Part shown: positions 14,155-43,291 of the stretch, piece after piece
How the letters are laid out: every line of letters begins with the position of its first letter
Position numbering within the stretch: the stretch's first letter is position 1
Translations under genes and position numbers: made by a program
From: an uncultured archaeon
Lineage (GTDB): Archaea > Altiarchaeota > Altiarchaeia > JAFGQM01
Assembly: GCA_964619365.1 (NCBI GenBank)
Contig: CAZUDQ010000003.1
Span: 35,960-99,959, forward strand
Direction of reading: 5' to 3'
Length of the DNA stretch: 64,000 bases
Notes under the pieces: generated by a model
The model's database searches: none
The model's input: the letters and a program-made list of their open reading frames with translations, nothing else
What the model was told of the DNA's origin: nothing

Positions 14155-16503
14155 GTGACGGGTTTTGTGGACGATAACATTCTTCTTGATGTAAGTTATG
14201 AGCGTGAGGGTAGCGCTCCAGTACTTAAATTATACTATCCCGGCCAAGACGGCAGGGACAAGGATATTAAAGAGATAAAGGATTTTTTTCCTTATTTTTA
14301 CGCCGTGCCACGAAATGACGCCTCTGCACTAAAAAGAGGCATCGAATCTGAAATAAGCTCACTTCGTGATGCCGAAGAAGTAGTTCTTGAGGACTCTAGC
14401 CAAAAGCTTAGAGTAATCAAAGTAACCCTTAATAATCCTGGAGAGGTTCCCGACGCGCGCGAAAAAATAAGACGCTTGCAGGAATGTCTTGAGACCCGCG
14501 AAGACGATATTCGTTTCACACAAAGATATGTCATAAATTCAGGTATTGTTCCAATGAAGGGGGCAACAAATACTAAGCTTAAGATTGCCGCATTTGATAT
14601 TGAAACTGTAAAGATTGATTCAGACGGACCTATGGAAAACACTAACATGCGCCCGATAATAATTAGCTATGCAGACTCACTTGGCGCAAGACATGTATGG
14701 CAGTTTGGCAACGAGTCAAGTCATAAGTTTGCCAAGACCTGCTCAACAGAAGAAGAGATAATAGAACTCTTTATTTCAACAGTAAAAAAGCAAGGAATTG
14801 ACATAATAGTAACCTATAACGGCGACAATTTCGATTTTCCGGTGATAAAAGACCGTTGCAAATTCCTTGGCACGAAATTTAATCTTGGCCCGAAAGACGA
14901 AGAGGTCAGGCTTGAGCGGCGTGGGATGAATCTTGCCGCAAGGATTCCGGGGCGCCCCCACATTGACCTTTATCCAATATGCAGAAAACTATTTTCACTA
15001 CCCAGGTACACCCTTGAAGATGTCCACGAAGCGCTGTTTGGCGAAGTGAAGCTCGACATAGAAATCGAAAACCTGGCTAGCTGGTGGAAAGAAGGAAAAA
15101 ATATAGATAAAATCATTGAGTACTCCATTTCAGATGTCGATTCCTGCCTTGCAATAGCAAAAGAGGTTCTCCCAACAGAATACGAGCTTACCCAGATTGT
15201 AAAACAGCCGATATTTGAAGTCTCGCGCATGGGAAGTGGAAACGCAATAGAATGGCTCCTTATGTCAATTGCCCATGAAAAAGGCATTTTAGTCCCAAAC
15301 AAGCCAAGCGACAGAGATTATCAGATTAGACGGGGGGAAGGTTATGAGGGTGCATACGTAGTAGAGCCGATAAAAGGACTGCATGATAACATATTCGTAT
15401 TCGATTTTCGCTCGCTATACCCCTCAATCATAATAGCCCATAACATCGACCCTTCAACTCATGACCAGAAAGCAGATGATGCTCTTTGTTCTATCTCACC
15501 AACGGGAGCCAAGTTCAAAAAGACGCCAAAAGGACTCATACCAGGGCTTCTTAACGAGATACTTTCAAGCAGGACAAAAATCAAGCGCCAGCTAAAAAAG
15601 GCAAAAGAAGAAAAGGAATCGGCAACTACAATAAAAGTCCTTGACGCGCGCCAGCAGGCCCTTAAGATACTTGCAAATTCAGCTTATGGCTACATGGGGT
15701 TTTCGCGGGCGCGCTGGTATGACAACGATTGCGCCGGAAGTACGGCTGCCTGGGGGCGTGAATACATAAAAGACACGATAAAAAAGGCTGAAGGACTGGG
15801 ATACAAGGTCGTTTATGGGGATACAGACAGCCTGATGCTAACGGTTCCCGGAAAAATAACAAAAGCTAAAGGAAAAGACATTGCAAAAGATTTCTTAAAG
15901 GAGATAAATTCAAAGCTCCCAGAAGCCATGGAACTTGAGTTTGAAGGTTTCTTCCCGCGTGGGGTGTTTATCACTAAAAAGCGCTACGCCCTAATCTCAG
16001 CAGAAGGAAAACTGACAATAAAGGGTCTTGAGACACGCCGTCGTGACTGGGCACAAATAGCAAAGGATACTCAAGTCCAGGTACTTGACGCAATACTCCG
16101 TGAGAGAAACCCAGAAAAGGCCGCAGAACTTGTCAAAAAAGTCATATTAGACTTAAAGGAAGGAAACGTCCCGCTTTCAGAACTCTTAATACATACTCAA
16201 CTCACAAAGCCGATTGGGGAATACGAAAACAAAGGACCGCATGTGATGGCTGCCACCAAGGCGCAAAAAAAAGGAATGAGAATAAAACCGGGCGACGTCC
16301 TCCAGTACATAATAACAAAGAAAGGCAACTCAATAAGCGATAAGGCATGTCTTATCGGCTTTTGCAAGGAGAATGATTACGACCCCGAATATTACATAAA
16401 CAATCAGGTTCTTCCGGCAGTCATGCGCGTACTTGAAGCATTGGGGTACAACGAAGACGAGCTAAAGGGTCTTGGAAAACAGACGACTCTTGGACATTTC
16501 TAA
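14155..16503 (+). CDS. polB: family B DNA polymerase (archaeal, intein-free)
   Basis: Exonuclease motifs FDIET and YNGDNFD; polymerase motifs DFRSLYPS, KILANSAYGY, YGDTDS; C-terminal PIP box QTTLGHF. Confidence 0.97.
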   Translation: MTGFVDDNILLDVSYEREGSAPVLKLYYPGQDGRDKDIKEIKDFFPYFYAVPRNDASALKRGIESEISSLRDAEEVVLEDSSQKLRVIKVTLNNPGEVPDAREKIRRLQECLETREDDIRFTQRYVINSGIVPMKGATNTKLKIAAFDIETVKIDSDGPMENTNMRPIIISYADSLGARHVWQFGNESSHKFAKTCSTEEEIIELFISTVKKQGIDIIVTYNGDNFDFPVIKDRCKFLGTKFNLGPKDEEVRLERRGMNLAARIPGRPHIDLYPICRKLFSLPRYTLEDVHEALFGEVKLDIEIENLASWWKEGKNIDKIIEYSISDVDSCLAIAKEVLPTEYELTQIVKQPIFEVSRMGSGNAIEWLLMSIAHEKGILVPNKPSDRDYQIRRGEGYEGAYVVEPIKGLHDNIFVFDFRSLYPSIIIAHNIDPSTHDQKADDALCSISPTGAKFKKTPKGLIPGLLNEILSSRTKIKRQLKKAKEEKESATTIKVLDARQQALKILANSAYGYMGFSRARWYDNDCAGSTAAWGREYIKDTIKKAEGLGYKVVYGDTDSLMLTVPGKITKAKGKDIAKDFLKEINSKLPEAMELEFEGFFPRGVFITKKRYALISAEGKLTIKGLETRRRDWAQIAKDTQVQVLDAILRERNPEKAAELVKKVILDLKEGNVPLSELLIHTQLTKPIGEYENKGPHVMAATKAQKKGMRIKPGDVLQYIITKKGNSISDKACLIGFCKENDYDPEYYINNQVLPAVMRVLEALGYNEDELKGLGKQTTLGHF

Positions 16504-16537: not shown

Positions 16538-16612
16538 AATCAGAGCTCATAAGGTTCATCATGGACAAGTCCTATAAAGAACTTAGCTCAGGGGTTGTTC
16601 GCTTCATCATTA
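16538..16612 (-). ncRNA. box C/D 2'-O-methylation guide sRNA
   Basis: Minus strand: C AUGAUGA (16610-16604), 12-nt guide AGCGAACAACCC, D' CUGA (16591-16588), 25-nt hairpin spacer, C' AUGAUGA (16562-16556), 12-nt guide ACCUUAUGAGCU, D CUGA (16543-16540). Confidence 0.92.
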
Positions 16613-16673
16613 CTAATTTTATAATGTGGAGACATTAATATCAAATAGACTATGTTGTAGAATAAAAAAAGAA

Positions 16674-17807
16674 ATGGCATCGCGCATTGACGAAAAACAT
16701 CTTGTAAAGACACTTCAGGAATTAATAAAGATACCTTCGGTTACCTGCAACGAAGGCGAGATTGCAAACTATGTGTTTGAAACCATGACAAATCTCGGTC
16801 ATGTTGCTTACGTGGACGAGGAAGTAGATAACGTCTATGTTGAAATGGGTGTGGGAAATGAAGGCAAGACTCTAATGCTTAATTCTCATCTTGACACAGT
16901 CCCCCCAATGGGCTACTTAAAAGACCCTTTTCGCGCTGAGAAAAAAGGAAATAAAGTAATTGGACTTGGCGCGTCAGACTGCAAGGCAGGGGTTGCAGGA
17001 ATGATTGAGATTGCACACAGAATCGACCCAAAAAAGATTAATGGAAAACTGCTTTTGGCATTTACCGTCGCAGAAGAAGACGTTCTTAAAGGAACACGCC
17101 TTCCCAAAGGAAGCATGTACGCTGCAGAAAAAATTAAAGCAGACGGATGTGTAATAATGGAGCCAACACTTTACAAAGGTGTTCCAAAGATTTCAGCGGG
17201 ATGCCGTGGGCGCATGATTCTTGAACTTACAGTCCACGGTAAAAGTACACATTCTTCACGTCCCGAGACTGGCAAAAACGCAGTCGAAGAAGCAGTACAC
17301 TTAGTAAACAGGCTAAAAGACCATGATTTATACATGGGCAATTATTTTGGAAAAGAGCTTCCAGAGACCCTTTCAATCGTAAAGATAAACAGCGACTCGC
17401 CGGCAACAAACATAATCCCCCGGCTTTGTGAAATGACAGTCGATTACAGGACGCTTCCCGGCCGCGATGATGTCAAAAAGAAGATAAAAGCTGCAATAAA
17501 AGAATCAGGGGTTGAAGCTGATGTGAAAATGCCCTATTTTTTCCCAGGATATTTCTTAGGGGAAAATTGCGAGTTTACAGACCAGTTTAAAACCCTTATT
17601 GATTCCCAGTTCAAATGTGATACAGAACGCATGGTAGCACTTGGAAGGGCTGACACTGAGTATTTTTACAGGCACGGCATTCCCGCTCTAGAGTTTGGTC
17701 CGGGTGAGAATCACCAATGCCACAAGCCTGAAGAGTATGCGCTCATACCAGGAATGGTCTCTGCGACAAAAGCGGTAATGAAATTCTCTGAAAAGTTCCT
17801 TTCTTAA
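16674..17807 (+). CDS. M20 family metallo-hydrolase (ArgE/DapE/LysK-like)
   Basis: NSHLDTV, GASDCK, EE, EPT, GKSTHSS and C-terminal His; start reassigned to ATG 16674. Confidence 0.88.
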   Translation: MASRIDEKHLVKTLQELIKIPSVTCNEGEIANYVFETMTNLGHVAYVDEEVDNVYVEMGVGNEGKTLMLNSHLDTVPPMGYLKDPFRAEKKGNKVIGLGASDCKAGVAGMIEIAHRIDPKKINGKLLLAFTVAEEDVLKGTRLPKGSMYAAEKIKADGCVIMEPTLYKGVPKISAGCRGRMILELTVHGKSTHSSRPETGKNAVEEAVHLVNRLKDHDLYMGNYFGKELPETLSIVKINSDSPATNIIPRLCEMTVDYRTLPGRDDVKKKIKAAIKESGVEADVKMPYFFPGYFLGENCEFTDQFKTLIDSQFKCDTERMVALGRADTEYFYRHGIPALEFGPGENHQCHKPEEYALIPGMVSATKAVMKFSEKFLS

Positions 17808-42316: not shown

Positions 42317-43291
42317 TTATTTTGCTTCCTTAAGTATCATCCGCGTGACATCATCAGTCGATATGCCCTGTCTTTCCGACTCGAAGTTAAGTATCAGGCG
42401 GTGACGCAGTACAGGTAGTGCCATAGCCTCGACATCTGCCTTTGAAGCAAAATTGTTTCCGTAAAGAAGGGCTCTTGCGCGTGCGGCCTTGACAATACCT
42501 ATTGCAGCGCGCGGCGAAGCACCATAATCAAGGTACTTATTTGCAGTCTCGTTACCCTCCCCAGGTCTTGTCGCGGCAACAAAAGAAACTACATACTTTA
42601 GCAATTCTTCTGAAATGGGAACCATAGTTGCAAGCTTTCCAAGCTCAATAAGCGTTTCAGAACTTATAACCTTTTTTATCTCCGGGGCTTCCCCGGCCGT
42701 GTATATCCTGACAATCTTTTCTTCCTCAAAAGGCTTTGGATAATCAACTAGTATCTTAAAGAGAAACCTGTCAAGCTGAGCTTCTGGGAGAGGATAGGTC
42801 CCTTCCATTTCTATCGGGTTTTGTGTTGCAAGGACAAAAAAAGGCGGTTTTAAAGTGAATGTGTTTGAGCCTGACGTAACCTGTTTTTCTTGCATGGCCT
42901 CCAGAAGAGCCGCCTGAGTTTTAGGCGTTGCCCTGTTTATCTCATCTGCAAGGACAATATTTGAGAATATCGGCCCCTGACGGAATCTAAACTCCTTTTT
43001 ACCAGTCTTTGCGTCCTCTTCAATAAGATATGTTCCCGTTATGTCCGAGGGCATGAGGTCAGGAGTACATTGTATTCTTGAAAAGTCAAGGTCAAGAGCC
43101 TCAGAAATTGCCCGGATTGTCATTGTTTTTCCAAGACCTGGTGCCCCTTCTAAAAGTGCATGGCTGCCTGTGACAATTGAAATCATTACATTTTCGACAA
43201 GCGCTTCCTGCCCGACAATGGCTTTAGCGATTTCAGCTTTGAACTTTTCAAATATCCTCTTTGCCTGTTTGTATGTGTCTTCTCCTGCCAT
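42317..43291 (-). CDS. moxR: MoxR-family AAA+ ATPase
   Basis: GAPGLGKT, RIQCTPDLMPSD, LADEINR, ATQNPIEMEGTYPLPEAQLDRF; start at ATG 43291. Confidence 0.95.
   Translation of the reverse strand: MAGEDTYKQAKRIFEKFKAEIAKAIVGQEALVENVMISIVTGSHALLEGAPGLGKTMTIRAISEALDLDFSRIQCTPDLMPSDITGTYLIEEDAKTGKKEFRFRQGPIFSNIVLADEINRATPKTQAALLEAMQEKQVTSGSNTFTLKPPFFVLATQNPIEMEGTYPLPEAQLDRFLFKILVDYPKPFEEEKIVRIYTAGEAPEIKKVISSETLIELGKLATMVPISEELLKYVVSFVAATRPGEGNETANKYLDYGASPRAAIGIVKAARARALLYGNNFASKADVEAMALPVLRHRLILNFESERQGISTDDVTRMILKEAK

Follow-up and report, generated by a model that had tools for sequence, protein, structure and literature searches.

A dual-guide box C/D small RNA of an uncultured archaeon, predicted to target U2552 of 23S rRNA and C34 of intron-containing pre-tRNA-Met

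Introduction

Box C/D ribonucleoproteins (RNPs) use short guide sequences to place 2'-O-methyl groups at particular nucleotides of other RNAs. Two such nucleotides, U2552 in the A-loop of 23S rRNA (Escherichia coli numbering) and C34 in the anticodon of elongator tRNA-Met, concern us here. Both target sites, the functions involved and the mechanism are already known from other archaea. We describe a stretch of 64,000 nucleotides (nt) from an uncultured archaeon, the whole of which we call the window, and in it a small RNA (sRNA) of the box C/D kind with two guides, one complementary to each site. What is particular to it is that one RNA combines guides for a pre-tRNA and for rRNA, that its expanded spacer hairpin is evolutionarily fluid, that it belongs to an apparently very small guide repertoire, and that guide and target covary across a phylum.

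For the tRNA site, methylation of C34 (Cm34) in elongator pre-tRNA-Met of haloarchaea has been attributed to a C/D RNA, sR-tMet (Joardar et al. 2011, RNA Biol 8:782, as cited in PMC4033218), and PMC7994747 describes an sRNA against position 34 of tRNA-Met in three Pyrococcus species. The earlier note that drew attention to our locus appealed to both precedents: the one is reported (PMC4033218), the other predicted (PMC7994747). The RNA described here resembles sR-tMet, as far as descriptions can be compared, in that its guide is complementary to the anticodon loop and the start of the intron, with C34 opposite guide position 5 (the ‘N+5’ nucleotide). The haloarchaeal RNA is said to be a box C/D RNA of ~75 nt that acts on the intron-containing precursor, and the Haloferax RNA reportedly departs from the usual form in its C'/D' motif and is extended at its 3' end. 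Ours differs in carrying a second guide with a clear rRNA target, U2552, and in having a canonical C'/D' motif closed by a hairpin; this comparison, too, is one of descriptions rather than of sequences.

For the rRNA site, sR25 of P. abyssi is a predicted guide for the equivalent of U2552 (PMC2584109), and five of the seven species surveyed in PMC4644070 have U2552 among their predicted guided sites. Haloferax, by the account in PMC2584109, yielded no U2552 guide and has a homologue of RlmE. Known also as RrmJ or FtsJ, RlmE likewise forms Um2552, in bacteria and Haloferax, as a stand-alone enzyme, whereas the reaction proposed here is guided by RNA. The sR25 and tRNA-Met position-34 sRNAs of Pyrococcus have, between them, the same two target sites as the single RNA in the window (PMC2584109, PMC7994747). 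As these sources describe them, they are separate sRNAs with kink-loops (K-loops), the usual form in Pyrococcus C/D sRNAs (PMC9670817), and short spacers, whereas ours is one RNA with a hairpin spacer of 25 nt. In Pyrobaculum, according to PMC7994747, the second guide of an sRNA that targets tRNA is usually an orphan; in our RNA, it has an rRNA target. Eukaryotes have C/D RNPs that act on the corresponding nucleotides, human SNORD97/SCARNA97 on C34 of elongator tRNA-Met (PMC6601510) and yeast snR52 on the U2552 equivalent of 25S rRNA (PMC2584109), as those papers report, but we claim no homology with either.

The sRNA and its two targets

We think it very probable that the minus strand of the spacer between polB and an M20 peptidase gene encodes an archaeal box C/D guide sRNA of canonical build, which guides methylation of U2552 and of C34 in pre-tRNA-Met. 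Its parts, in window coordinates, are these:

16540..16610, minus strand: box C/D sRNA core, C box to D box, 71 nt (sequence reading, unique strict pattern match, orthologues)
16604..16610, minus strand: C box AUGAUGA (sequence; R/GUGAUGA in all seven family orthologues)
16592..16603, minus strand: D' guide AGCGAACAACCC, 12 nt (positions 2–11 pair with the 23S A-loop; N+5 is U2552, E. coli numbering)
16588..16591, minus strand: D' box CUGA (sequence and orthologue alignment)
16563..16587, minus strand: D'–C' spacer, 25 nt, hairpin (arms 16585–16578 and 16573–16566, loop 16577–16574)
16556..16562, minus strand: C' box AUGAUGA (sequence and orthologue alignment)
16544..16555, minus strand: D guide ACCUUAUGAGCU, 12 nt (positions 2–11 pair with intron-containing elongator pre-tRNA-Met; N+5 is C34)
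16540..16543, minus strand: D box CUGA (sequence)

A strict dual-guide C/D pattern matches this sRNA and nothing else in the ~1.2 Mb of the source genome (17 contigs, rated 85% complete), and matches nothing in any of ten shuffled genomes; a relaxed pattern adds one further sRNA, discussed below, and finds none in five shuffles. The spacer hairpin comprises 8 base pairs (bp), U:G pairs included (UAAGUUCU/AGGACUUG), around a UUAU loop, and its folding energy is -6.7 kcal/mol compared with -1.8 in shuffles (z = -3.9). Because this hairpin supplies a Watson–Crick stem, the internal C'/D' motif looks like a kink-turn (K-turn) and not a K-loop. The earlier note had placed the element at 16538–16612, which is the sRNA with 2 nt on either side, on a strand that it left unstated and that proves to be the minus strand. 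The four perfect boxes and two 12-nt guides that it saw between polB and the M20 gene can be read from 16610 down to 16540. Its spacer of 25 nt and the hairpin within it are real, too; only the 7 bp that it assigned to the stem needed changing, to 8.

Target sites were sought by pairing scans of a 7257-nt set made up of one archaeal 23S rRNA (gene at C8:18871-21744), one 16S rRNA and the 34 tRNA genes found by ARAGORN. In such coordinates C8, C1 and so on are contigs, and a prefixed c marks the minus strand. The stretch of 23S rRNA that faces the D' guide is AGGUUGUUCGCC, at C8:21413-21424, which is positions 2543–2554 of this large-subunit (LSU) RNA. Positions 2–11 of the guide form ten contiguous Watson–Crick pairs with LSU 2544–2553, and the runner-up site has a run of only eight. 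Alignment against E. coli 23S rRNA places the N+5 nucleotide, LSU 2547, on U2552, in the A-loop.

The D guide finds its best site in the whole target set in the elongator tRNA-Met(CAU) gene (C1, c207733-207865), which has an intron of 58 nt at the canonical position. The exon/intron junction reads CGCUCAUAAGGA. Guide positions 2–11 form ten contiguous pairs with this precursor, C34 lies at N+5, and the final two or three of the ten pairs are made with the first nucleotides of the intron, AGG (or GG) being intronic. Since these pairs use intron nucleotides, the guide probably acts on the unspliced precursor. Splicing of the elongator tRNA leaves only eight pairs. The initiator tRNA-Met (C1, c76255-76333) offers eight Watson–Crick pairs and one G:U, also with C34 at N+5, and the best that 23S rRNA can provide is a run of nine, two of them G:U, at LSU 1139.

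Both duplexes, then, cover exactly guide positions 2–11, with mismatches at positions 1 and 12, and each guide reaches 10 bp at one of the classical sites of methylation. Of 20000 random 12-mers, only 301 (1.5%) find a 10-bp match somewhere in the target set. In the active state of the archaeal C/D RNP, as PMC9670817 describes it, the duplex of guide and substrate is limited to 10 bp, and the pairing of positions 2–11 here has the same geometry as those structures (PMC9670817). The earlier note had arrived at both targets, the A-loop uridine and C34 of a CAU tRNA, and its suspicion that the AGGU beyond the anticodon might be intronic was well placed, for AGG (or GG) does lie in the 58-nt intron. 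The 11-nt complements that it quoted, on the other hand, are one base too long at each guide.

The proteins with which such an RNA would work are present in the source genome: fibrillarin (245.3 bits), Nop5 (194.8 bits) and L7Ae (94.5 bits) all score above cut-offs and lie in open frames. The element thus has what archaeal C/D sRNAs are known by: terminal C and D boxes, internal D' and C' boxes, 12-nt guides, targets of ~10 bp, genes for the core proteins, and conservation. What we observe is the anatomy, the targets, the core genes, the conservation and the covariation described below; that it is transcribed, that it assembles into an RNP and that the methylations occur we infer from the way in which C/D RNPs are established to work. 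L7Ae would bind both the terminal C/D motif and the hairpin-closed internal C'/D' motif, the latter a putative K-turn, and a Nop5 dimer and two fibrillarins would complete the particle. Each 12-nt guide would form a 10-bp duplex with its substrate through positions 2–11, and the nucleotide opposite position 5 would become 2'-O-methylated. In this way the D' guide is predicted to give Um2552 in the 23S A-loop, and the D guide to give Cm34 in elongator tRNA-Met ahead of splicing.

No orthologue of RlmE was found in this 85%-complete genome with the PF01728 and TIGR00438 profiles; the earlier note had named this gene, along with those for the three core proteins, as worth looking for. The two PF01728 (FtsJ) matches score 24.1 and 18.6 bits, and Pfam assigns both frames to generic class I methyltransferases; the best TIGR00438 (rrmJ) score is 29.7 bits, against a cut-off of 300. 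Our comparison set, consisting of the source genome (G000) and 40 relatives (G001 onward) searched by BLAST and by pattern, contains FtsJ matches at E ≤ 1e-5 in 21 of its 41 genomes. These matches are partial and score 25–37 bits, save for one of 71 bits on a 96-amino-acid frame in G020. We read them as generic methyltransferases, and we see no convincing RlmE/FtsJ orthologue in the set.

Conservation and covariation

The same dual-guide sRNA occurs in six of the seven other genomes of the family (G001, G002, G003, G004, G006 and G007) and was not found in the seventh, G005, which is 64% complete. Its setting is largely kept. The start of the M20 gene adjoins the sRNA in five of the six orthologues and the end of polB in four; in G004, polB ends ~0.8 kb away. 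Among the seven family members, the boxes and both guides are near invariant. The D'–C' spacers are unrelated in sequence and differ in length (19, 19, 25, 37, 43, 57 and 65 nt), and every one of them forms a hairpin (z = -3.9 to -6.4) that starts 0–2 nt after D' and ends 1–3 nt before C'.

Beyond the family, the two guides part company. Together with its C' and D boxes, and at no more than one mismatch, the tRNA-Met guide is present in 35 of the 41 genomes compared, and a reversed-pattern control gives none. In a wider set of 61 genomes from nine families the exact guide occurs in 46. Searches at the level of the class and of the phylum returned the identical 61 genomes, so that, as sampled, this is a small phylum with a single class. 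Outside the family, the D' guide that accompanies the tRNA-Met guide differs in every genome except G038, where it is of the U2552 type. The core of the U2552 guide, CGAACAACC, occurs between box remnants in 29 of the 41 genomes and never in the reversed control. In most families it belongs to a different, compact sRNA with a spacer of 3–4 nt and a terminal stem of 5 bp, whose D guide is complementary to 23S rRNA immediately 3' of the A-loop. We note, beside this, that the 29 genomes with a U2552 guide stand in a set in which no convincing RlmE was seen, and that G037 has two tRNA-Met guide units 108 nt apart (C63:3505-3634, locus L088), suggestive of an sRNA duplicated in tandem.

The two sides of the tRNA-Met duplex change together. 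The 23 genomes with both the guide and a tRNA-Met gene could be compared, leaving out six with the tRNA but no guide match and 12 with the guide but no tRNA motif. Guide positions 2–11 pair in full in 20 of the 23. Between target position 11, in the intron, and guide position 11 the pair is C:G in eight genomes, G:C in six and U:A in five, and tRNA position 31 pairs with its guide nucleotide as G:C in 15 and A:U in six. At these two variable positions together, 40 of 46 combinations are Watson–Crick pairs, whereas random reassignment of guides among genomes, repeated 10000 times, gives 20.6 on average and never more than 32. The intron-less genome G030 was retained in this count, as was G004, whose target is a spurious, non-tRNA match to the motif that lowers the observed score by at most 2.

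Exact matches to an elongator tRNA-Met without an intron occur in only two of the 61 genomes, G017 (C102:1129-1202) and G030 (C1:~42777-42850); matches with one mismatch include initiator tRNAs and were not used. G017 has no match to the tRNA-Met guide, and the guide of G030 is degenerate (8 bp) with boxes intact. The association of intron loss with guide loss is anecdotal, since there are only these two cases.

A second sRNA, a tRNA-Trp intron and the size of the repertoire

Two further guide-bearing elements turned up elsewhere in the source genome:

G000:C7:58969-59054 (locus L044), plus strand, outside the window: sRNA-B, a box C/D sRNA whose C box reads AUGAGGA (pattern and pairing scans)
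G000:C10:10770-10943 (locus L045), plus strand: tRNA-Trp(CCA) gene with a 99-nt intron that holds a degenerate C box, a CUGA box and a 12-nt guide (ARAGORN and pairing)

The D' guide of sRNA-B is nearly identical to that of the sRNA in the window and targets the same nucleotide, so that U2552 is covered twice in this genome; it is doubly covered in G001 and G002, too. The D guide of sRNA-B makes 10 bp with 23S rRNA, with N+5 on LSU 2553, the C that corresponds by alignment to C2558 of E. coli. The spacer of this sRNA, 40 nt long, folds as a hairpin. The two sRNAs have in common, then, the U2552 D' guide and an expanded hairpin spacer, and differ in D guide and C box. The compact sRNAs of other families, described above, are orthologues of sRNA-B.

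The guide in the tRNA-Trp intron forms 9 bp (seven Watson–Crick and two G:U) over the exon/intron junction of its own transcript, with C34 at N+5. We saw no convincing second guide or D box in this intron. The arrangement, a guide for tRNA-Trp encoded within the tRNA-Trp intron, is as described for Haloferax and Pyrococcus in PMC4033218 and PMC11408192. Other tRNA introns in the genome, as listed by ARAGORN, include an oddly placed one of 68 nt in tRNA-Gln(CUG) (G000:C4:c30811-30958), for which the anticodon position is given as 104, and one of 42 nt in tRNA-Tyr (G000:C2:c104347-104464).

When every unit consisting of a box, 12 nt and another box was scanned for at least nine pairs with rRNA or tRNA, only four guides emerged, all of them in the two sRNAs; shuffled genomes yielded 0–3. 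The stand-alone C/D repertoire of this archaeon appears to consist of two RNAs, on a scan that would miss sRNAs with degenerate boxes and in an assembly that is 85% complete.

Weighing the alternatives

Several observations weigh against the idea that the element is a functional guide for both sites. Rfam finds nothing in the window at its gathering thresholds. The best permissive match, RF01133 (sR3), spans the full model length with E = 1.5e-4, and scores 24.6 bits where the gathering score is 41; it is driven by the boxes, the guides differ, there is an insertion of 22 nt at the spacer, and we do not regard the sRNA as a member of that family. The other permissive matches are to generic C/D families, below threshold. 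Folded as a whole, the sRNA has a minimum free energy of -13.2 kcal/mol (z = -1.16), no better than shuffles. Non-significant folds are usual for whole C/D sRNAs, and lend no support. The terminal stem beside the C and D boxes is weak, with at most ~4 pairs, one of them G:U, and a 4-nt loop. Counts in the covariation analysis are not independent events, because the genomes are related and the reshuffling ignores phylogeny, and pairing is incomplete in three of the 23: G008, which is a one-mismatch match with CGGA as its D box, the intron-less G030, and G034. Given sRNA-B, the U2552 guide of the sRNA in the window may be redundant. And with the genome 85% complete, the absence of rlmE is not proven.

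Might the whole be a chance cluster of box motifs, functionless, in an AT-rich spacer? The boxes are short, and the fold just mentioned is not significant, but a strict match is found in none of ten shuffled genomes, both guides reach 10 bp at classical sites, a length that only 1.5% of random 12-mers attain at any place in the target set, and the orthologues extend across the phylum, with covariation; we consider chance very improbable. The possibility that only one guide is catalytic, the other (the U2552 guide, for example) being chiefly an RNA chaperone or tether, or redundant, strikes us as unlikely. It would fit the duplication of the U2552 guide in sRNA-B, which adds a guide for the nearby C2558, and the divergence of the D' guide beyond the family in every genome but G038; it would also fit Pyrobaculum, where the second guide of tRNA-targeting sRNAs usually lacks a target, as PMC7994747 has it. 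What speaks for two working guides is that the D' guide is conserved almost letter for letter in the seven family members and is in the correct N+5 register on U2552.

The choice of tRNA substrate also admits of an alternative: that the substrates of the D guide are spliced tRNAs, either mature elongator tRNA-Met or the initiator or both, and not the intron-containing precursor. The eight contiguous pairs that survive in the mature elongator, the eight Watson–Crick pairs and one G:U of the initiator with C34 at N+5, and the persistence in intron-less G030 of a guide with intact boxes and eight pairs can all be cited in its favor. The full 10 bp are reached only on the precursor, however; G017 has neither the intron nor a guide match; and across the phylum the intron and the guide nucleotide that faces it change together (C:G, G:C, U:A), which would be unexpected were the intron no part of the substrate. 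We regard action on spliced tRNAs as quite unlikely, and keep to the precursor. As for the site in 23S rRNA near position 1924, which the earlier note offered as another target for the D guide, a partial resemblance of motif is all that can be said for it, and we found no support. An exhaustive scan of 23S and 16S rRNA shows no run of seven or more pairs that includes the N+5 nucleotide in that region, and the proposal falls for want of a complementary site; it is ruled out at the level of complementarity and has, in our estimation, practically no chance of being right.

What the sRNA may mean

These findings leave the mechanism of C/D RNPs as it was known. They add a C/D guide RNA that comparison supports well, one that lies below every Rfam threshold, to an uncultivated archaeal lineage with small genomes from salt-lake metagenomes, and they suggest that Um2552 in this lineage is probably made under the direction of RNA, by two redundant guides, rather than by RlmE. 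The covariation of guide and intron is comparative evidence, independent of the experiments in Haloferax, that Cm34 is formed before splicing, and it offers a concrete reason for the persistence of the tRNA-Met intron.

A bolder interpretation can be entertained, which we put forward tentatively and think somewhat doubtful: the tRNA-Met intron might be retained as a docking site of 2–3 nt for the guide RNP, within a near-minimal C/D methylome that has replaced RlmE. The argument for docking turns on the three types of Watson–Crick pair between guide and intron, and on the two intron-less cases, in which the guide is either missing (G017) or degenerate (G030). As part of the same interpretation, the family to which the window belongs may have fused the tRNA-Met guide with a second copy of the U2552 guide on an RNA whose putative internal K-turn bears a freely expanding hairpin (19–65 nt). 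The whole C/D machinery seems to be kept for about five sites: U2552 (twice), C2558, C34 of tRNA-Met, and C34 of tRNA-Trp from its own intron. A single RNP would then link the finishing of the ribosomal A-site to that of the tRNA by which AUG is read. Two stand-alone sRNAs and one tRNA-Trp intron suggest a C/D methylome close to the minimum, and such a set could help us ask which 2'-O-methylations are indispensable.

Genomic neighborhood and source

The sRNA sits between the stop of polB and the start of the M20 gene, antisense to both. Of the flanking open reading frames (ORFs), both on the plus strand, the family B DNA polymerase runs from 14155 to 16503, and the M20 peptidase from either 16626 or 16674 to 17807. 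One further feature lies upstream:

16634..16642, minus strand: AT-rich, TATA-like element, a possible promoter of the sRNA's own, ~25–33 nt upstream of the C box (alignment reading only)

AT-rich boxes occur at a similar upstream distance in six of the seven family orthologues, as read from an alignment of upstream regions, and the TATA-like box suggests that the sRNA may have its own promoter. Between this box and the C box there is an A-rich stretch (16614–16625, minus strand; ~-15 to -4 before the C box) that is conserved in the family orthologues (loci L009, L010, L011, L013, L014 and L104), a candidate leader, initiator region or processing signal.

The sequencing runs that hold the locus are labeled salt lake metagenome or simply metagenome, and none is listed as RNA; the four runs compared gave DNA contigs only, identical to the window, with zero variation. 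The matches of polB among named lineages are all distant, the identities being 36% to a Micrarchaeota metagenome-assembled genome (MAG), 31% to an uncultured archaeon, 30% to an Aenigmatarchaeota MAG and 24% to a bacterial MAG. The proteome is of moderate acidity: over the 588 ORFs of 250 amino acids or more, the (D+E)/(K+R) ratio is 1.24 and the median isoelectric point 5.84.

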